Below, in pieces: positions 108-55,534 of a stretch of 64,000 nt of DNA. Position 1 is the first letter of the stretch. Each line of letters starts with the position of its first letter. Source of the DNA: an uncultured Eubacteriales bacterium (lineage in GTDB: Bacteria; Bacillota; Clostridia; Christensenellales; CAG-138); the NCBI GenBank assembly GCA_902786465.1, contig CADACQ010000009.1, positions 3,339-67,338 on the forward strand. The letters run 5' to 3'. The notes below the pieces were generated by a model that saw nothing but the letters and a program-made list of their open reading frames with translations, did no database searches and was not told the DNA's origin. The translations under genes and the position numbers were made by a program.

Positions 108-1337
108 TCAGCGATCCAGGCCCTTGAGGTATTCCACCGCCGCCTGCAGCTGGGTGTCGCTCTCATAGGGGATGGAGGGGATGTTGTAGTAGGTCAATCC
201 TTCCGGCAGCTCCACGATGTGGTCCGGCGTGATGCCCGTGCCCTGAATGCACACGTCGGCGGGCGTATAGTAGGCGTCGGTGGTGAACTTGATGGTGCCG
301 TCCCGGCCGAAATTGATATTGAAGAAGGTCTGGACGATGCCCTTGCCGAAGGTGACGGTGCCGAAGAGCTCCGCCGCGTCGTTGTCCTTCAGGGCGCCGG
401 AAAGGAGCTCGCTGGCTGAGGCGGAATAGCCGTTGACCAGCATGGCGATGGGCATGTCGAGGCCGTCGGAATGGGTGCGATAGACCTGCTCCTTGTTGAC
501 GCGGCTCCTGACCGTGGTGATGACCTTGTTCTTGGGCAGGAAGATGTCCGCGATATCGCATACGTCGGATAACGATCCACCAAGATCGTCCCGCACGTCC
601 AGCACCAGGGCGTTCATGCCCTGTTCCTTCAGATCGGCCAGGGCGTCCTTCACCTCCCGGACCACCTGGCCGTGGAAGCCGGAGATATAGATGTAGCCGA
701 TGGAATCGTCCAGCATCTTATAGGTGACGTAGGGGGAATAGACCTGGCGCATGGTGACGGTGAAGGTCAGCTCCTGGCCATCCCGCAGCACCACCACGGT
801 GTTCACGTCCCCTTCCTCGTGGATGATGAACCCCAAAAACTCGCTGAGATCCTTCCCCTCGGCGGGCTCGCCGTTGGCTCGGATAAGCTGGTCGCCCACC
901 AGGATGCCCGCTTCCTTGGCCGGTGTATCGTCGTAGACGTCGGTGATGATGAAGGTGCTGTTCCCCTGATCGGACACCAGCACGCCCATGCCGATGAAGG
1001 TGCCGGAGTTGCTGTTCAACAGCTCCTCGTATTCAGCCTTGGTATAGTACTCGGCGTAGTCGTCCCCCATATAGGCGGAGAGGCCCTTGAGAGCGCCGGT
1101 GACCATGCTCTCCTGGGTCTTTTCGTCGAAGAAATAGTAGTTCTTCTTCACCAGCTCGATGGCCTCGGAGACCGGCTCCAGCTCGGAGAACCGGTTCACG
1201 TAGTAGAGGGACGTGAAGAGTATGCTAAAAGCAGCCGCCAGCACGGCGCACAGCACACAAAGCCATACGCTGACCCGGCGGCTCCTTCTCTTCGTTTTCA
1301 CGGGAACGGATTCAAAGGTCAAACGGGTTTCTTCCAT
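108..1337 (-). CDS. S41 family C-terminal processing peptidase with PDZ domain and N-terminal membrane anchor
   Basis: 409-aa ORF with motifs LVLDVRDDLGGSL, NGYSASASELLSGALKD and TFGKGIVQ typical of CtpA/CtpB-type peptidases. Confidence 0.9.
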   Translation of the reverse strand: MEETRLTFESVPVKTKRRSRRVSVWLCVLCAVLAAAFSILFTSLYYVNRFSELEPVSEAIELVKKNYYFFDEKTQESMVTGALKGLSAYMGDDYAEYYTKAEYEELLNSNSGTFIGMGVLVSDQGNSTFIITDVYDDTPAKEAGILVGDQLIRANGEPAEGKDLSEFLGFIIHEEGDVNTVVVLRDGQELTFTVTMRQVYSPYVTYKMLDDSIGYIYISGFHGQVVREVKDALADLKEQGMNALVLDVRDDLGGSLSDVCDIADIFLPKNKVITTVRSRVNKEQVYRTHSDGLDMPIAMLVNGYSASASELLSGALKDNDAAELFGTVTFGKGIVQTFFNINFGRDGTIKFTTDAYYTPADVCIQGTGITPDHIVELPEGLTYYNIPSIPYESDTQLQAAVEYLKGLDR

Positions 1338-5399: not shown

Positions 5400-6166
5400 A
5401 GCGCCAGTATCCTTTCCATCAGCACCATCAGTCCCAGCATGACCAGCTCCGCCGTCTGGAGCTGGAACCCGGCGATATCCCCGGACATGCCTTCAAATTG
5501 TTTCATCGCCATGCGCCGGACCAGCAGGAGCGTAGCTACCGCCCCCAGGGCCATGACGCTGCCCACCAAAGGCCAGACGGCCACCATGGCGGCGGCGGAC
5601 AGGACCACCCAGCCTACGGCCATAACGGTCACCCGCTTGTCCGCGGCCTGATGAAAGACGTTCAGCGTCCCCTCTCCCGGCCGCACGGGCAGCAGGGTGC
5701 CGGACACGGCGGAGAGGCTCCGGCTCATGACGTGAATAAGCCCCAGCAGAGCCAGCGTCCGACCGGACCAGGGCAACTCCACGCACAGGCCGAACCAAAG
5801 GAGCAGATAGGCGGCCAAGCCGATGATGGCGAAGGCGCCGGCATGGGGATCCTTCAGGATGGCCCGCTTCTTCTCCGGGGCGGCGTGGCTCTTGAGGGCG
5901 TCCACCGTGTCCATGAAGCCGTCCAGGTGGATGCCGCCGGTGAGGAGCAGGGGGATCAACGTCATGCCCACCCCGTGAAGGACCGGGCCGAAGGAAAGCC
6001 AGCTCCTGAGCAGGAACCACAGCCATTCCGCCCCGCCGATGACCAGGCCCACCAGGGGCAGGGCCGCCAGCATATACCGTATCTTCTCCTTCTCCCAGGG
6101 CACCTGGGGCGCGGGCAGGGCGGAGAACATGGAGAAGGCGGCGAAGATGGAATAGATGAAGTTCAT
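5396..6166 (-). CDS. cobS: Adenosylcobinamide-GDP ribazoletransferase (cobalamin synthase)
   Basis: 256-aa polytopic membrane protein starting MNFIYSIFAAFSMFSALP, with the GGIHLDGFMDTVDA motif. The ATG at 6166 overlaps the native cobU stop. Confidence 0.9.
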   Translation of the reverse strand: MNFIYSIFAAFSMFSALPAPQVPWEKEKIRYMLAALPLVGLVIGGAEWLWFLLRSWLSFGPVLHGVGMTLIPLLLTGGIHLDGFMDTVDALKSHAAPEKKRAILKDPHAGAFAIIGLAAYLLLWFGLCVELPWSGRTLALLGLIHVMSRSLSAVSGTLLPVRPGEGTLNVFHQAADKRVTVMAVGWVVLSAAAMVAVWPLVGSVMALGAVATLLLVRRMAMKQFEGMSGDIAGFQLQTAELVMLGLMVLMERILAL

Positions 6167-10602: not shown

Positions 10603-10654
10603 GACAATACTTCGGGCACGATGGCCCGACGGTTCACTCAATCCCAGAAGTGTA

Positions 10655-10815
10655 CATGTTCAAACAGGTCTCCCGGCTTGGGTTCCTCCTACTCGAGCCC
10701 CTTCCCGCCCCCTGAGGAACAGTGGGTATGCGCTCTTTCGTCCCCCTTACGGTTACTGGGATAGCTCAGGCTTTCCACCCGATTCCCTCAGCCCCCAAAG
10801 GCCGCTGCTTTCACA
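10655..10815 (-). promoter_or_regulatory. Cobalamin (B12) riboswitch aptamer
   Basis: Minus strand contains GGGAATCGGGTGGAAAGCC, ACCCACTGT and the B12 box AAGCCGGGAGACCTG (plus-strand 10661..10681). It lies upstream of the BtuFCD-like/cob operon. Confidence 0.85.
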
Positions 10816-10843
10816 GATAAGAACACGCTATTCATCTTGAGTC

Positions 10844-23942: not shown

Positions 23943-24042
23943 GGTACCCCCTCAGGGACTCTTCTCGGCCTCGACGGCCTCGGGCAGGGCGCGCTCTGAA
24001 TGTCCACTGGACATCCATTCACTACGCGCCCTTCGAGTCCCT
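23943..24042 (-). repeat. tRNA-flanking structured element, copy K1 (arms match the tRNA-Lys(CTT) 3' end)
   Basis: Minus strand: AGGGACTC-GAA-GGGCGCG-TAGTGAA-TGGATGTCC-AGT-GGACATTCA-GAG-CGCGCCC ... GAGTCCCT-GAGGGGGTACC. The last 19 nt equal the tRNA-Lys 3' end (24113..24095). The core is homologous to the copies at 54471 and 54621. Confidence 0.85.
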
Positions 24043-24056
24043 ATCGTGATACCTAT

Positions 24057-24093
24057 AAAGGAAAAGAGATGCCGAATGGCATCTCTTTTCCTT
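24057..24093 (-). terminator. Terminator after the tRNA array
   Basis: A 17-bp perfect stem (AAAGGAAAAGAGATGCC / GGCATCTCTTTTCCTTT) directly after tRNA-Lys(CTT). Confidence 0.8.
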
Positions 24094-24170
24094 TGGTACC
24101 CCCTCAGGGACTCGAACCCTGGACACCCTGATTAAGAGTCAGGTGCTCTAGCCAACTGAGCTAAGGAGGC
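24094..24170 (-). tRNA. tRNA-Lys (anticodon CTT), CCA encoded
   Basis: Hand-folded cloverleaf. Anticodon loop CTCTTAA, T-arm CAGGG-TTCGAGT-CCCTG. Confidence 0.9.
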
Positions 24171-24265: not shown

Positions 24266-24293
24266 ATTATAACAAAATTCTGCCGGTTGTCAA
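24266..24293 (-). promoter_or_regulatory. Internal promoter in the tRNA array, upstream of tRNA-Gly(GCC)
   Basis: Minus strand TTGACA (24293..24288), 16 nt, TATAAT (24271..24266), 13 nt before the tRNA 5' end. Confidence 0.7.
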
Positions 24294-53028: not shown

Positions 53029-53904
53029 GTGGAAAAGCTGAAAAAATCGGTTTGCATACAGGAATGGGGCAAGGACATTCTGGCGGATGTGCTGGGGGCG
53101 TTGCTGTACGGCGCGGGCGTGTACGTGTTCGCCGTGAACGCCAACTTCGCGCCGGGCGGGATCACGGGCCTCGCGATCCTGGTGAACCACTTCTTCCCCT
53201 TCCTGCCCATCGGCACCCTGACCGTTATCATCAACATCCCGGTCATCCTGTTGTGCTATGCGTACCTGGGAAAGAAGTATTTGGTGAAGTCCATCCTCTC
53301 CATGGGCATCATCGCCTTCGTACTGGACGTGATCTACCCCCACGTGCCCGTCTACACCGGGGACCCGCTGCTGGCGGCCCTGTTCGCGGGCGTGATCTCC
53401 GGCGTGGGCCTGGCGCTCATCTACGCACGAGGCTACTGCACCGGCGGGTCTGACTTCATCATCATGGCCATCCGCAAGAAGTTCCCCCACCTGTCTGTGG
53501 GCTCCATCACGCTGATCATCGACGGCTGCATCATCCTGGCGGGCGGCTTCGTCTTCGGCCGGGTGGACGCGGTGCTGCAGGGCATCGTCATGACCGGGGC
53601 CAGCACGGTGATGATCGACAAGATCCTCTACGGTGCCGGCTCCGGCAAGCGCATCACCGTCATCACCGACAAGGGCCAGGAGGTGGCGGACGCCATCGGG
53701 ACCCAGCTCCACCGGGGCGTGACCATGATGAAGGTGGTGGGCGCCTACTCCGGCCTCGAGCACACCATGCTCCTCTGCGCCTGCTCCAACTCCGAAGGGT
53801 ACCGGGTGAAGAAGCTGGTCTACTCCATCGACCCCAAGGCCCTCATCATGATCTCCCCCAACGACGAGGTCTTCGGCGAGGGGTTCAAGAGTCCCGAGGA
53901 TTGA
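53029..53904 (+). CDS. YitT-family membrane protein (DUF2179 C-terminal domain)
   Basis: The GTG at 53029 is preceded by AGGGGG. Polytopic N-terminus plus a C-terminal soluble domain. The upstream part of ORF 52594.. overlaps paralog 3 out of frame. Confidence 0.85.
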   Translation: MEKLKKSVCIQEWGKDILADVLGALLYGAGVYVFAVNANFAPGGITGLAILVNHFFPFLPIGTLTVIINIPVILLCYAYLGKKYLVKSILSMGIIAFVLDVIYPHVPVYTGDPLLAALFAGVISGVGLALIYARGYCTGGSDFIIMAIRKKFPHLSVGSITLIIDGCIILAGGFVFGRVDAVLQGIVMTGASTVMIDKILYGAGSGKRITVITDKGQEVADAIGTQLHRGVTMMKVVGAYSGLEHTMLLCACSNSEGYRVKKLVYSIDPKALIMISPNDEVFGEGFKSPED

Positions 53905-53963
53905 CCTTGACGGCCCGGCCCCGAGGGGATAAGATGAAAGCAGGACACAAGGAGGACGATCAT

Positions 53964-54281
53964 ATGGCCCACAGCGAAGCCTTTTACAAGAAGCCCGAGG
54001 AGTGCCACTACTCCTTCTTCCAGCACAAGGAGTGCGAGTTCTTCCCCTGCCACAAGACGGATCACCCGGAGGACTTCAACTGCCTGTTCTGCTACTGCCC
54101 CCTGTTCGCCCTGGGGAAAAAGTGCAAGGGCAACTTCCGGTACACGGAGAACGGCGTGAAGGACTGCTCGAACTGCCTCATCCCCCACACCCGCAAGAGC
54201 TATTCCTACATCATCTCCCGGTTCCCGGAGCTCATGGAGGTGGCGAAGGAGCAGGACCGGGCGGAAGATGAAAAGGCCTGA
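53964..54281 (+). CDS. Cysteine-rich small metal-binding domain protein
   Basis: The ATG at 53964 follows AAGGAGGA. 105 aa with clustered Cys/His (ECEFFPCH, FNCLFCYCPLF, CSNC). Confidence 0.75.
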   Translation: MAHSEAFYKKPEECHYSFFQHKECEFFPCHKTDHPEDFNCLFCYCPLFALGKKCKGNFRYTENGVKDCSNCLIPHTRKSYSYIISRFPELMEVAKEQDRAEDEKA

Positions 54282-54290
54282 AAAAAACTC

Positions 54291-54319
54291 TTGCATTCTA
54301 AAATGAAATAGTGTATTAT
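54291..54319 (+). promoter_or_regulatory. Promoter of tRNA-Ser
   Basis: TTGCAT (54291..54296), 17 nt, TATTAT (54314..54319), 16 nt before the tRNA. Confidence 0.7.
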
Positions 54320-54335
54320 ACCCATCGGACCCTGT

Positions 54336-54426
54336 GCAGAGATGGCTGAGCTGGTCTAAGGCGCACGACTGGAAATCGTGTATACTAGGAATAGTATCGA
54401 GGGTTCGAATCCCTCTCTCTGCGCCA
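54336..54426 (+). tRNA. tRNA-Ser (anticodon GGA), long variable arm, CCA encoded
   Basis: GCAGAGA/TCTCTGC acceptor, anticodon loop CTGGAAA, T-arm GAGGG-TTCGAAT-CCCTC, 91 nt. Confidence 0.92.
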
Positions 54427-54462
54427 ACAAAAAGAGCACCCAATTCGGGTGCTCTTTTTGTT
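54427..54462 (+). terminator. Terminator after tRNA-Ser
   Basis: ACAAAAAGAGCACCC-AATT-CGGGTGCTCTTTTTGTT. Confidence 0.85.
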
Positions 54463-54470
54463 ACATCGAA

Positions 54471-54576
54471 TGGAGAGGGATTCGAAGGGCGCAGGAGTGA
54501 ATGGAGCGCCAGTGGCGCTCCAGAGCTGCGCCCCGACCAAGCCCGCAGGCGCGACCGAATCCCTCTCTCTGCGCCA
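54471..54576 (+). repeat. tRNA-flanking structured element, copy S1 (arms match the tRNA-Ser 3' end, ends in GCGCCA)
   Basis: The 5' arm GGAGAGGGATTCG pairs with the 3' arm CGAATCCCTCTCT. Core at 54487..54533: GGGCGCAG-GAGTGAA-TGGAGCGCC-AGT-GGCGCTCCA-GAG-CTGCGCCC. Confidence 0.85.
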
Positions 54577-54612
54577 ACAAAATAGGCACCCTTCATGGGT
54601 GCCTTTTTTGTT
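54577..54612 (+). terminator. Second terminator hairpin (diverged copy of 54427..54462)
   Basis: ACAAAATAGGCACCC-TTCA-TGGGTGCCTTTTTTGTT. Confidence 0.8.
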
Positions 54613-54620
54613 GGCAAAAA

Positions 54621-54730
54621 GCAGAGAGAGGGATTCGAACGGGCAGGTAGTGAATGAGGCTCCAGTGGAGCCTCAGAGCCTGCCCTGACCGAGCGCGTCG
54701 AGCGCGAGAGCGAATCCCTCTCTCTGCGCC
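54621..54730 (+). repeat. tRNA-flanking structured element, copy S2 (17-bp closing helix identical to the tRNA-Ser acceptor and T-stem)
   Basis: GCAGAGAGAGGGATTCG (54621..54637) pairs perfectly with CGAATCCCTCTCTCTGC (54711..54727). Core at 54641..54685: GGGCAGG-TAGTGAA-TGAGGCTCC-AGT-GGAGCCTCA-GAG-CCTGCCC. Confidence 0.85.
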
Positions 54731-54733
54731 CCT

Positions 54734-55534
54734 TTAAACGATCCCCCCTGCGGCTTCGCCGCTTCCCCCCTTTACGCAAAGGGGGCTCTTCTCCGGCAGC
54801 AGCAGGAACGCCACAGCCCACACGACCAGCAAAGCCAGCAGCGCCCAAACCGGCCACATCTCGATCATGACCAGCTGCGTTTCATACCCCATGGCATGCG
54901 CCGCCAGATCCTGCAAAAAATGGAGCACCATGGGCACGAGGATGTTGTGGGAATGCAGATATATCGCCGCCATGGCAAATCCGAATACGCCAGCGAACAA
55001 TTCCGAACCGCTTCCGATGTGTAATGCTGCGAACAATAATCCGCTGAGCAAACCGTAGACCAGCCGCCGCCTTCCTGTCCGTTCCCCATGCTGATAGTAA
55101 CCTTCCAGCAGCAATCCACGAAAAGTTATCTCTTCAAAAAAGCCTGTGGTGATCTGTTGACAGATCAGGTCCGCAAACAGCAGCTGCCACGGGATCGACT
55201 TGAGCTCCCGCCAATAGGACGCTGGAGTCTTGGTAAACACGATGATGATCTCTGCCAGGATATAGATGAGCACCCCGCCGCCCGCCAGCAGGGCAGCGCC
55301 CAGGTTCTTCCCGTGGATGACGTTTCGCCAGTTGCCCTTATCGAAATACTTGATCAGCAGCCACAGGGACAGCGCACCGAAGACCACACGCACCAGGCTG
55401 TCGATCAGCAGTCGAGCCGTCGTGTTTTGAATGAACTGCGTACCCAGGACATCCACGCCCACGAACGCCGCTATGACCAGCACCGCCAGCCAGAATCCAC
55501 CCTGGGGCTTCCATTTCTGCGTCTGATTCCCCAT
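54734..55534 (-). CDS. CPBP family intramembrane glutamic endopeptidase (CAAX protease-like)
   Basis: EEITFRGLL and FAALH motifs. The ATG at 55534 shares one nt with the upstream stop. The ORF is open to 55579. Confidence 0.85.
   Translation of the reverse strand: MGNQTQKWKPQGGFWLAVLVIAAFVGVDVLGTQFIQNTTARLLIDSLVRVVFGALSLWLLIKYFDKGNWRNVIHGKNLGAALLAGGGVLIYILAEIIIVFTKTPASYWRELKSIPWQLLFADLICQQITTGFFEEITFRGLLLEGYYQHGERTGRRRLVYGLLSGLLFAALHIGSGSELFAGVFGFAMAAIYLHSHNILVPMVLHFLQDLAAHAMGYETQLVMIEMWPVWALLALLVVWAVAFLLLPEKSPLCVKGGSGEAAGGIV

Follow-up and report, generated by a model that had tools for sequence, protein, structure and literature searches.

Tandem modules behind a clostridial tRNA-Ser gene: most likely members of a family of RtT-like, non-autonomous repeat cassettes

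Directly behind the tRNA-Ser(GGA) gene of an uncultured Eubacteriales bacterium (Christensenellales) lie two head-to-tail modules whose ends repeat the 3'-end of the tRNA. What are these modules, which of their parts are selected, and by what process are they gained and lost? An earlier note, made from the sequence alone, had read them as a selected fold and offered two explanations: a small RNA presenting a tRNA-Ser acceptor minihelix, or a DNA-level element arisen by serial duplication of the tRNA 3'-end. The question was followed up in the window (the whole 64,000-nucleotide stretch that was analysed) and in related loci. The modules are most likely RtT-like, non-autonomous repeat cassettes.

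The tRNA-Ser(GGA) locus and a third copy in the window

The tRNA-Ser gene and all the elements of the two modules described in the earlier note were found in place (Table 1), and the core segments read exactly as it had written them. The direct and inverted copies of the tRNA 3'-end form the 3' and 5' arms of the elements. The sequence CGAATCCCTCTCTCTGCGCC occurs in three exact direct copies, at 54406, 54556 and 54711 (0 expected, 100 shuffles), spaced 150 and 155 nt. The inverted copies comprise 14 nt (54473-54486, 100%) and 20 nt (54621-54640, 100% relative to the tRNA, and 100% over 17 nt relative to 54711-54727). The element of module 1 (S1) terminates in G plus CCA and that of module 2 (S2) in G plus CCC. 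The two terminator hairpins do differ by paired changes (GAGCACCC/GGGTGCTC versus AGGCACCC/GGGTGCCT). The 8-nt spacer described behind them needs correction in module 2, where it is 5 nt long (AAAAA) if the terminator stem is taken at full length.

Table 1. Features of the tRNA-Ser(GGA) and tRNA-Lys(CTT) loci; positions are counted from the first nucleotide of the window.
Feature	Position	Strand	Basis
tRNA-Ser(GGA)	54336..54426	+	ARAGORN; Rfam tRNA 57.5 bits
Repeated 3'-end of tRNA-Ser, last 21 nt (T-loop C56 to CCA)	54406-54426	+	repeat analysis
Terminator-type hairpin T1; 16-bp stem with A-tract and T-tract, 5-nt loop	54426..54462	+	arms 100% complementary
Inverted arm 1, reverse complement of tRNA positions ~54-67 (T-loop and 3' strand of T-stem)	54472..54486	+	
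Core 1: P-a 8 bp, internal loop GAGUGAA/GAG, P-b 9 bp, AGU loop	54487..54533	+	
Small hairpin region P-c of unit 1, GCC-CGCA-GGC	54534..54555	+	fold
Direct copy 1 of the tRNA 3'-end (C56 to CCA), doubling as start of unit 2	54556..54576	+	
Terminator-type hairpin T2, 82% identity to T1 with paired changes	54577..54615	+	repeats, terminator scan
Inverted arm 2, 20 nt, exact reverse complement of tRNA 54403-54422	54621..54640	+	
Core 2 (S2 type)	54640..54686	+	covariance model R1
P-c hairpin of unit 2, CGAG-GCGC-GUCGA-GCGC-GAG, potential for tandem G-A pairs	54687..54710	+	fold
Direct copy 2 of the tRNA 3'-end; G+CC then C, without CCA	54711..54730	+	
tRNA-Lys(CTT), last gene of a cluster of 8 tRNAs, donor of the arms	24094..24170	-	ARAGORN
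Terminator-type hairpin behind tRNA-Lys	24061..24090	-	read from sequence
Inverted arm of the third element, AGGGACTCGAA, reverse complement of tRNA-Lys positions 54-64	24032..24042	-	
Core 3	23986..24032	-	pattern match; R1 60.5 bits
P-c hairpin of the third element, GGCC-GUCGA-GGCC	23961..23985	-	sequence, fold
Direct copy of the tRNA-Lys 3'-end, AGTCCCTGAGGGGGTACC	23943..23960	-	

The two copies known from the earlier note are joined by a third, which it had overlooked: a core 71 nt behind tRNA-Lys(CTT), with arms derived from tRNA-Lys. The element family is not specific to tRNA-Ser. Covariance model R1 gave core 1 a score of 65.1 bits (E 2e-16) and core 2 a score of 64.7 bits. When the three elements of the window were folded in isolation, the three-way fold described in the earlier note was obtained for each (-59.7, -73.3 and -51.4 kcal/mol; z-scores -4.8, -9.3 and -5.7). 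There is an equally good register, in which each copy of the tRNA 3'-end pairs across the terminator with the next inverted arm, and this register is the minimum-free-energy fold of the full read-through transcript.

Neither ARAGORN nor the Rfam tRNA model called the modules as a tRNA cloverleaf; at these loci only the genuine tRNA-Ser and tRNA-Lys were reported. Nor were the modules accepted as tRNA pseudogenes, since their core covaries and bears no relation to tRNA. The open reading frames over the module region were judged to be spurious overlaps, and a protein-coding reading was rejected as well.

The core and its arms

The core is 47 nt long and consists of the P-a stem, an asymmetric internal loop (NAGUGAA/GAG) and the P-b hairpin, which is closed by CC-AGU-GG. 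Covariation was evaluated in 105 distinct copies among the matches listed, a set gathered by exact pattern, in which 20 core positions are consequently fixed and divergent members (type-B core, long form) are under-sampled. In this set 92% of the cells were paired, compared with 72% after shuffling and 32-42% after sliding, and the covariation score was 0.50, compared with 0.14 and 0.07 in the controls. Double-sided changes numbered 332 against 87 expected, with up to five pair types per position. The inner hairpins are the selected part of the element, and they fold on the strand of the tRNA sense. The P-c stems vary between copies.

Among the mismatch types of P-a, G-U (18) outnumbered A-C (5) in the matches listed. 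This bias, the conserved purine-rich loops and the potential for tandem G-A pairs are typical of RNA. In 61 of 109 cores listed the P-b hairpin is preceded by G-UAG. By inspection only, the loops resemble neither the canonical kink-turn, the sarcin-ricin loop, the hammerhead core or domain V of group II introns, nor the boxes of integron attC sites or the ends of IS200/IS605.

The arms behaved differently. Among the matches listed, direct arms of at least 10 nt, beginning at tRNA positions 55-57, were present in 50 of 56 copies, and inverted arms measuring 8 nt or more, with their ends at positions 53/54, were likewise present in 50 of 56; from the T-loop onwards both nearly always matched the tRNA or tmRNA upstream. 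The tRNA-derived arms follow whichever tRNA is upstream, with their boundaries in the T-loop, and the unit junctions GTTCGAAT and ATTCGAAC also come from the tRNA T-loop. Across the family the direct repeat measures 10-24 nt or more, and 25 of the 50 direct copies listed run through CCA. The inverted arm is in most of the listed copies limited to the T-loop and T-stem (positions 54-62/66). Pairing of the arms, again among the matches listed, was approximately 100% at positions 54-62 and about 40% at positions 67-73, and the outer "acceptor" stem decays past ~9-13 bp. Where the distal direct copy was mutated, the inverted arm was uncompensated in 23 cases versus 5 and followed the tRNA instead, and G-U pairs were not in excess over A-C in the arms (both among the matches listed). 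Arm pairing is not maintained by compensatory change. The selected fold claimed in the earlier note is thus upheld for the inner double hairpin and given up for the outer stem.

These properties of the arms bear on the proposal that the element mimics a tRNA acceptor minihelix and offers a substrate or decoy to RNase P, the CCA-adding enzyme, an aminoacyl-tRNA synthetase or toxins directed at the acceptor or the T-loop. S2 and a few other copies can indeed form acceptor helices of 17-20 bp ending in the discriminator and CC(A), but in most copies only the T-loop/T-stem part is paired, compensation in the arms is lacking, and half of the direct copies listed have no CCA. Moreover, the arms derive from at least 15 other tRNA types and tmRNA, and the core also carries REP arms free of tRNA sequence (see below). 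The minihelix, which the earlier note had proposed for tRNA-Ser, is very improbable.

Uncompensated arms would also be compatible with a purely passive origin, in which template switching at hairpins and unequal crossing-over at tRNA terminators generate the units and the core merely hitchhikes. Arrays that behave like ordinary tandem repeats with arbitrary end phase and a core-less palindrome behind tRNA-Leu in locus L069 point in the same direction. But chance duplication cannot explain a 47-nt covarying structure with conserved loops, copies of which, spread over dozens of species, follow at least 15 different tRNAs; the covariation result largely refutes this explanation, and we consider it improbable.

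Distribution, gain and loss of the units

The exact core motif was matched in at least 118 genome stretches, and all matches listed were from Clostridia; a Dysosmobacter isolate (L012) is one cultured carrier. Of the 129 cores listed, 55 were located 60-83 nt, or whole units further, behind a tRNA or tmRNA gene on the same strand. The hosts were tmRNA or at least 15 kinds of tRNA, including those for Pro, Ser (with five anticodons), Leu, Arg, Gly, Tyr, Lys, Ala, Gln, Trp, Thr, Val, Cys and Glu. Among the matches listed, tRNA-flanking cores were always oriented like the tRNA, and cores in other contexts were oriented like the upstream gene in 40 of 58 cases. Almost every unit is preceded by an intrinsic terminator, and every unit has its own terminator 3' of it. 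The sequences are mostly contigs of metagenome-assembled genomes (MAGs), in which tandem repeats are liable to mis-assembly; the palindromes and tandem repeats of the units can themselves break or collapse such assemblies. The units resemble tRNA fragments, terminators and att sites, and are therefore relevant to annotation of tRNA 3'-flanks.

The other contexts comprise dozens of unrelated ones, with tips of REPs and MITE-like repeats among them. In L075 a 78-nt core interrupts the loop of a REP-like hairpin devoid of tRNA sequence, and an intact REP lies 100 nt away. In one MAG, MITE-like elements of ~270 nt at different loci contain identical copies of the core. Hosts of this core thus include a REP-like hairpin, at its tip, as well as MITE-like repeats.

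No recurrent ORF, and no recurring transposase, integrase or reverse transcriptase, was found within 3.5 kb of the cores listed. Clusters of ORFs near the cores were dismissed as linked genes, as they represented the element itself read in frame. A search of 2.9 million viral contigs gave one match, and blastn against plasmid and phage collections gave none; these searches lend no support to a phage or plasmid origin.

Related loci differ in their units. L120, a near-identical metagenomic contig, shares the promoter, the tRNA and a flanking protein (100% identity, with 62% of the query aligned) but lacks exactly module 1, indicating that units come and go between direct repeats. Similarly, L091 equals L065 plus one unit. 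Eight metagenomic alleles of the tRNA-Ser locus carry one or two units, variant cores, remnants or islands; core-deleted remnants and unit-less alleles occur at this locus, and variants of the terminator homologous to T1 stand behind the same tRNA in L106 and L120-L132. At tRNA-Gln, L084 and L117 form a pair of a filled and an empty site, the payload here being a different one. A duplication ending at the 3'-end of the transcript, the signature of an RNA-templated event, was rejected for L084 because the second copy continues through the inverted arm into the payload. Between the direct repeats a cassette is either wholly present or wholly absent, and the tandem arrays that cassettes form have an arbitrary end phase. 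In outline, the second proposal of the earlier note, a small non-autonomous DNA unit built on serial duplication of the tRNA 3'-end, fits this presence and absence in blocks.

Orthologues of the S2-type core were found behind the same tRNA in L106, L120, L121, L125, L128 and L130. The core plus P-c (~100 nt) was almost invariant in most of seven contigs, P-c being replaced or interrupted in L121 and L128; in the adjoining terminator at least 12 of 40 columns were variable. One pair changed from A-U to G-C in L130, with an A.C intermediate in L121. The near-invariant orthologues persist in relatives whose flanking protein is only 80% identical. The invariance and the paired change look like selection on resident copies, which favours a function for the host or in cis, or else recent recombinational spread.

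A host function could be that of an RtT-like trailer RNA, produced by read-through from the tRNA promoter, trimmed by tRNA-processing enzymes at the copy of the tRNA 3'-end, and exerting some regulation by binding a protein or RNA through its conserved hairpin, as has been proposed for RtT in connection with the stringent response. A strong intrinsic terminator upstream of almost every unit argues against such an RNA, as does the favoured fold of the read-through transcript, in which the inverted arm pairs with the tRNA itself. The promoter/terminator scan detected no promoter for the units. That the core turns up in dozens of unrelated settings, among them REP tips and MITE-like repeats, also weighs against it, as do the core-deleted remnants and unit-less alleles at the same locus. 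The proposal draws support from the strand-specific, purine-rich conserved loops with their strong covariation, from the constant location of the core on the tRNA strand, from the terminator after each unit, and from the retention of CCA in half of the direct copies listed. The near-invariant S2 orthologues with their single compensatory pair point the same way, and so does the architecture shared with RtT, whose gene rttR was presented as the source of an RNA connected with the processing of tyrT and probably also with the stringent response (bioRxiv 10.1101/2024.07.17.603846). On balance we regard a host-beneficial trailer RNA as rather unlikely.

Islands encoding a tyrosine integrase (PF00589) are located directly behind the same tRNA-Ser(GGA) in L126, L129 and L133-L136, and they bring their own terminator next to the tRNA. 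The modules might accordingly be attL/attR scars or internally deleted derivatives of such islands. The island of L134, which is complete (5.2 kb), has an att repeat of ~57 nt extending from the anticodon loop to CCA and possesses neither an inverted arm nor a core, whereas the units repeat only 21 nt, beginning at C56. Because the att extent differs, the modules were not accepted as scars of the local islands. With one core serving at least 15 tRNAs, and no integrase within 3.5 kb of the units, descent from islands, a possibility already considered in the earlier note, is far-fetched.

The explanation that we prefer, and to which we give an even chance, is that the modules are small, non-coding, non-autonomous repeat cassettes which, in Clostridia of gut and rumen, occupy the 3'-flanks of genes for tRNA and tmRNA and are the counterpart of RtT. 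A cassette of ~150 nt consists of a terminator, an inverted copy of the T-loop and T-stem, the 47-nt hairpin, P-c, and a direct copy running from the T-loop to the 3'-end. The core may be a module acting in cis, which enters the tips of DNA hairpins by copying or recombination, and the tRNA-like arms would be by-products of template switching or of recombination centred on the T-loop. Recombination between the repeated tRNA 3'-ends would then lengthen and shorten the arrays. RNA would be made only by read-through of the upstream terminator and could be released by tRNA-processing enzymes, as with RtT. No spreading enzyme or intermediate was found in the loci examined, and mobility is for this reason deduced only from distribution and polymorphism. 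A bolder version, which we hold to be possible though doubtful, is that the core represents a class of gene-less mobile modules entering hairpin tips (the T-arm of tRNA or tmRNA, REPs) via a folded single-stranded DNA or an RNA/cDNA intermediate. Such entry would yield the inverted and direct copies of the tRNA 3'-end, and E. coli RtT would be a relic of the same process. If the core does seek hairpin tips as a mobile module, this would constitute a new mode of DNA mobility.

Comparison with known systems

Bacterial MITEs such as Correia, RUP, BOX and ERIC are small, non-coding, multi-copy elements that can form hairpins and occur in full and truncated variants. MITEs have terminal inverted repeats of their own and duplicate 2-10 bp of the target. 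In the element described here, in contrast, the inverted arms derive from the target, and a direct repeat of at least 20 nt is present. Membership among the classical MITEs was rejected, since the arms vary according to the tRNA next to them and the direct repeat measures 10-24 nt or more.

Tyrosine-integrase islands that target tRNA genes share with the element the direct repeat of the tRNA 3'-end flanking the insert and a terminator supplied by the insert, and the tRNA-Ser gene studied here is a proven target of theirs. The islands, however, extend over kilobases and carry the integrase gene. Integron attC sites, and likewise the attP of CTX phage in its folded single-stranded form, are, like the element, imperfect strand-specific hairpins with conserved unpaired bases, are recognised by structure, and involve arrays of short units between short repeats. 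Unlike attC, the element has no R'/R'' boxes (GTTRRRY), and its repeat is the 3'-end of a tRNA, with junctions taken from the T-loop. No recurrent gene was linked to the cores within 3.5 kb, and assignment to the attC sites was rejected.

REPs and REPINs, which are mobilised by RAYT transposases, are short multi-copy extragenic hairpins with covarying stems, as is the element. The G(U/G)AG in front of P-b resembles the GTAG head of REPs, and REP-like GTAG elements are present in the same genomes, one of them hosting a core. No RAYT gene was found in the 3.5-kb flanks of the cores. REPs differ from the element in being a single palindrome rather than a three-hairpin module and in having no duplication of a tRNA 3'-end.

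In the literature searched no account of repeats in tRNA flanks of Clostridia was found, and rttR was mentioned only in passing. No Rfam family reached threshold in the window, in a 700-nt region searched with relaxed E-values, or in 29 related loci. Many matches of microRNA type were dismissed as a mere reflection of the long palindrome. The only family that aligned end to end with S1 and with the payload of L084 was RtT RNA (RF00391), which corresponds to the 178-bp tyrT repeats of E. coli (gene rttR). S1 scored 20.6 bits (region E 0.08-0.2) and the L084 payload 16.5 bits, both below the gathering threshold of 45, and S2 was unreported. The earlier note had recognised no named family; this calls for correction, as RtT is modelled with the same architecture, albeit with a match below threshold.

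RtT is the closest known relative of the element. Both form tandem arrays that follow a tRNA gene and share its strand, and in both the unit ends in a copy of the tRNA 3'-end, with a complementary 5' arm closing a multi-hairpin core. In the Rfam consensus of RtT the 5' arm pairs with a copy of the tRNA-Tyr 3'-end terminating in CCACCA, and the genomic units of E. coli contain both inverted and direct copies of tRNA-Tyr. Short motifs are also common to the two (GCGAAGCG and CGAGCG..CGAGAG). RtT differs in lacking the P-a/P-b hairpin and the AGUGAA/GAG loop, and its units in E. coli have a ~58-nt spacer and no intrinsic terminator. RtT occurs in 1 to 10 copies per genome, varying between strains, and in this analysis it was seen only behind tRNA-Tyr; the family of Clostridia is found behind at least 15 tRNAs and tmRNA and, unlike RtT, in hairpins unrelated to tRNA. 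The cassettes are possibly distant relatives of the repeats behind tyrT. To our knowledge the E. coli repeats have stayed unexplained since 1978, with no agreement on function or origin. RtT, an oddity of one E. coli operon, can now be compared with a much larger and more diverse family of the same architecture, carried by bacteria that abound in gut and rumen. The comparison makes it tractable to ask which part is selected, by what route units come and go, and what enzyme or process drives this.

The units behind tRNA-Ser and tRNA-Lys and their relatives

Each unit behind tRNA-Ser(GGA) is made up of a terminator-type hairpin (T1 in unit 1, T2 in unit 2) bearing an A-tract and a T-tract, a short spacer, an inverted arm, a 47-nt hairpin (the core), a small hairpin (P-c) and a direct arm identical to the last 20-21 nt of the tRNA. 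(Inverted and direct arms are the reverse-complement and forward copies of the 3' part of the neighbouring tRNA; S1 and S2 are the arm-core-arm elements.) All sequence details of the two modules listed in the earlier note were correct on re-reading. Folded alone, S1 and S2 were predicted to form three-way junctions closed by the two arms (z-scores -4.8 and -9.3). In an alternative, equally good register the tRNA 3'-end copy, the terminator and the next inverted arm form a single long palindrome. This register was preferred in the fold of a 400-nt read-through transcript, in which the T-arm of tRNA-Ser itself would unfold.

A third core was located behind tRNA-Lys(CTT), at a distance of 71 nt; this gene closes an 8-tRNA cluster. 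A covariance model run over the whole window found exactly three copies (60-65 bits; next match 15 bits). The arms of the third copy, AGGGACTCGAA and AGTCCCTGAGGGGGTACC, correspond to the 3' end of tRNA-Lys instead of tRNA-Ser, in inverted and direct orientation respectively, so the conserved module is the core, and its arms are taken from the adjoining gene. The hairpin downstream of the second unit (Table) belongs to the same type as the hairpins at the ends of MITE-like elements in other genomes.

Table. Features of the window and of the genome or metagenome contig stretches (L numbers) compared with it
Feature	Sequence	Position	Strand	Remark
tRNA-Ser(GGA)	window	54336-54426		two units follow
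Third core	window	23986-24032	minus	found with a pattern built from invariant loop bases
Hairpin CTTCCCCCCTTTACGCAAAGGGGGCTC	window	54762-54790		just 3' of the last tRNA 3'-end copy; also in L120 and L128
Sigma-70-type promoter	window	24266-24293	minus	perfect (TTGACA, 16 nt, TATAAT, with TG); upstream of tRNA-Gly(GCC), within the 8-tRNA cluster
Cobalamin riboswitch	window	10646-10827	minus	RF00174, 83.9 bits
345-aa ORF	window	53820-54857	minus	antisense to tRNA-Ser and both modules; an artefact of stop-poor repeats, could be mis-called as a gene
Unit with seemingly foreign arms	L052	~5440-5620		behind tRNA-Trp
Core-less palindrome AGGAATCGAACCGGAGGTTCGATTTCGGGG	L069	~305-380		behind tRNA-Leu(TAA)
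Long form of the element	L121	~2560-2700
Unit with other payload	L084	806-1010		at tRNA-Gln(CTG)
Empty site	L117	from 5938 onwards		at tRNA-Gln(CTG), related genome
Gut-1 RNA	L072	2299-2382		RF01706, 64 bits; a core copy follows about 90 nt downstream
Tyrosine-integrase island	L126	5-3094		at tRNA-Ser(GGA)
Tyrosine-integrase island	L129	1404-7205		at tRNA-Ser(GGA)
Tyrosine-integrase islands	L133-L136			at tRNA-Ser(GGA)
Complete island	L134	9746-15056		at tRNA-Ser(GGA)

Further copies, mostly on MAG contigs, were collected with an exact 20-base core pattern from one genome per species, a procedure that by itself enforces part of the loop conservation and captures too few divergent members. The pattern occurred in at least 118 genome stretches. 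Among the matches listed, all hosts were gut or rumen Clostridia (Oscillospiraceae, Acutalibacteraceae, Christensenellales, Faecousia, Dysosmobacter), and 55 of 129 cores lay behind a same-strand tRNA (Pro, Ser, Leu, Arg, Gly, Tyr, Lys, Ala, Gln, Trp, Thr, Val, Cys or Glu) or tmRNA gene. The spacing was tight, 60-83 nt, or longer by one or two units. The layout of tRNA-linked copies was always tRNA, terminator, spacer, inverted arm, core, P-c and direct arm, often with a second terminator. In 50 of 56 copies the direct arm had 10 or more exactly matching nt, beginning at tRNA positions 55-57; 25 of these arms extended through CCA. Inverted arms with a minimum length of 8 nt, also present in 50 of the 56, end at positions 53/54. 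On either side, then, the boundary is the T-loop. In the L052 unit both arms resemble 3' ends of tRNAs other than the adjacent one, and ARAGORN calls a pseudo-tRNA on the opposite strand; the foreign arms suggest that this unit moved together with its arms. In L069 inverted and direct T-arm copies stand back to back without a core; this arrangement could be a precursor palindrome or could result from loss of the core from a unit.

Covariation in the core and in the arms

The core comprises helix P-a, the internal loop AGUGAA/GAG, helix P-b and an AGU loop. Its positions were paired in 92% of the cells, compared with 72% in shuffled and 32-42% in slid controls, and 332 cells were changed on both sides (87 expected). 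The covariation is strong (score 0.50, against 0.14 and 0.07 in these controls) and supports the earlier proposal that the inner hairpin is a selected fold. P-a, which was unconstrained by the search pattern, nevertheless had several positions with four or five pair types; in one subfamily this helix contained a tandem G-A/A-G. P-c is a hairpin between CGAG-type flanks, its stem sequence varying from copy to copy.

The inverted arm matched the tRNA at positions 54-62 but only to about 40% at 67-73, and among its mismatches G-U was no commoner than A-C. At positions where the distal direct copy departs from the tRNA, the inverted arm agreed with the tRNA in 23 cases and with the distal copy in 5 (about 15 and 5 after removal of doubtful alignments). 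The outer helix is long in S2 and a few other copies. This acceptor/T-arm helix shows neither conservation nor compensation, which takes away the main support for the selected mimic of the tRNA acceptor minihelix envisaged in the earlier note.

The RNA-like loops of the core and the excess of G-U (18) over A-C (5) in P-a argue for a host-useful RNA similar to RtT, the repeats behind tyrT in E. coli. Orthologous S2 copies point the same way: ~100 nt are near-invariant beside a fast-changing terminator, and there is one compensatory pair change. We consider this main alternative to a non-autonomous repeat cassette unlikely; the two are not mutually exclusive.

Some cores deviate from the common type. 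In type B (L091, first unit behind tmRNA; L122 and L127, first unit behind tRNA-Ser) P-a, P-c and the CC-AGT-GG tip are kept, and the AGUGAA/GAG loop is replaced by TGTMAG/CC and a longer A/T-rich stem. A long form, with a conserved ~125-180-nt extension after the core (..CAAGGAG..CGACTATGC..), was seen in L121 and in L006, L014, L112 and L080 (about 240 nt after the core); it had no Rfam match in L006, L053 or L121. The L084 unit has the same layout with another payload: direct copy, terminator, inverted arm, ~135 nt of payload, direct copy and terminator. RtT was the only Rfam match of this payload (16.5 bits).

Unit turnover and cores outside tRNA flanks

L120, a metagenomic contig, shares its promoter and tRNA with the window, and its flanking zf-like protein shows 100% identity across the 62% of the query that aligned. 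Its order is tRNA, T2, inverted arm, S2 core, direct copy, so exactly module 1 is absent, between two copies of the 21-nt repeat. A metagenome scan with the tRNA promoter 34-mer yielded eight further alleles of this one tRNA-Ser(GGA) locus: single units with differing terminator variants and differing cores, the type B core, the long form, core-deleted remnants keeping both arms, a degenerate flank, and integrase islands. At the tmRNA locus L091 has one unit more than L065, and the tRNA-Gln locus is empty in L117 and carries 1.4 units of the different payload in L084. The arrays are thus ordinary tandem repeats, the first unit overlapping the tRNA 3' end.

Tyrosine-integrase islands (PF00589) use the same tRNA-Ser(GGA) as attachment site, and some encode a C5 cytosine methyltransferase and a serine recombinase. 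In the complete 5.2-kb island the att repeat spans ~57 nt, from the anticodon loop to CCA, with neither inverted arm nor core; the units are not scars of these local islands, and the comparison thus did not yield the refuting case named in the earlier note, ordinary attL/attR scars of a large excised island. An autonomous element was rejected, as no ORF family recurred within 3.5 kb of the cores. So was a phage- or plasmid-borne element: a single match turned up among 2.9 million viral contigs, and plasmid and phage records gave no match. Membership of a known RNA family was rejected too, since no Rfam family reached threshold in the window or the related loci.

Cores also occurred away from tRNA genes. 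In L075 a REP-like hairpin (GGGAGGGT CATG ACCCTCCC, then CTAC) is interrupted at its loop by a 78-nt core; 100 nt upstream this REP is found again in uninterrupted form. Another 37 cores, each following a GCGAAGC-type mini-hairpin, lay within ~270-nt MITE-like elements with hairpin-forming terminal repeats of 20-28 nt (e.g. GGCTCCCCTTGTGTAAGGGG...CCTCCCCTTACACAGGGGAGGC). Identical composites at different loci within the same MAG indicate recent spread. Such palindromes were present in one Faecousia MAG (L013, L050, L069) and one Oscillospiraceae MAG (L056, L090, L118). Copies in one genome share a common frame, their internal hairpins and central segment varying by paired changes, and this interior looks like a hypervariable cassette. 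By crude ORF calling, the upstream gene was on the same strand in 40 of 58 non-tRNA contexts. The Gut-1 RNA in L072 is so near a core that it may be another module of the composite repeats.

Proposed origin and comparison with RtT

That the units are a non-autonomous repeat cassette has, in our judgement, an even chance of being correct. In the simplest reading the core would be a cis-acting, strand-specific folded module ending up at hairpin tips, and the tRNA-derived arms a by-product of T-loop-centred copying or recombination. At the terminator hairpin a strand would fold back; copying would then run backward through the tRNA 3' end up to the T-loop, and synthesis would jump into a donor core and come back at the T-loop. 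This scheme of fold-back copying reproduces every junction, including the duplicated terminator in the young arrays of L010, L105, L111, L113 and L084. The same product would result if a small circle made up of direct copy, terminator, inverted arm and core were inserted in the Campbell manner. Later changes of the arrays would come from recombination between the repeats.

RtT (RF00391) is the closest known counterpart: it was the only Rfam model to match S1 over its full length, with 20.6 bits against a threshold of 45. Global alignments of the clostridial element with RtT gave z-scores of 2.7-5.9, and because these partly reflect the tRNA-derived arms, homology is only possible. RtT, present in 1 to 10 copies per E. 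coli genome, has a mode of action still called unknown in a recent preprint (bioRxiv 10.1101/2024.07.17.603846). In its Rfam consensus the 5' arm GgGaaGGAU pairs with AUCCuuCcC, followed by ccaCCACCA; an inverted arm is thus paired with a copy of the tRNA-Tyr 3' end. The sequence of the E. coli K-12 tyrT region confirms this pairing of copies: it contains ~178-nt units with inverted and direct tRNA-Tyr 3'-end copies around a multi-hairpin core, and these have the motifs GCGAAGCG and CGAGCG..CGAGAG in common with the clostridial element. The architecture is common to the clostridial units and RtT.
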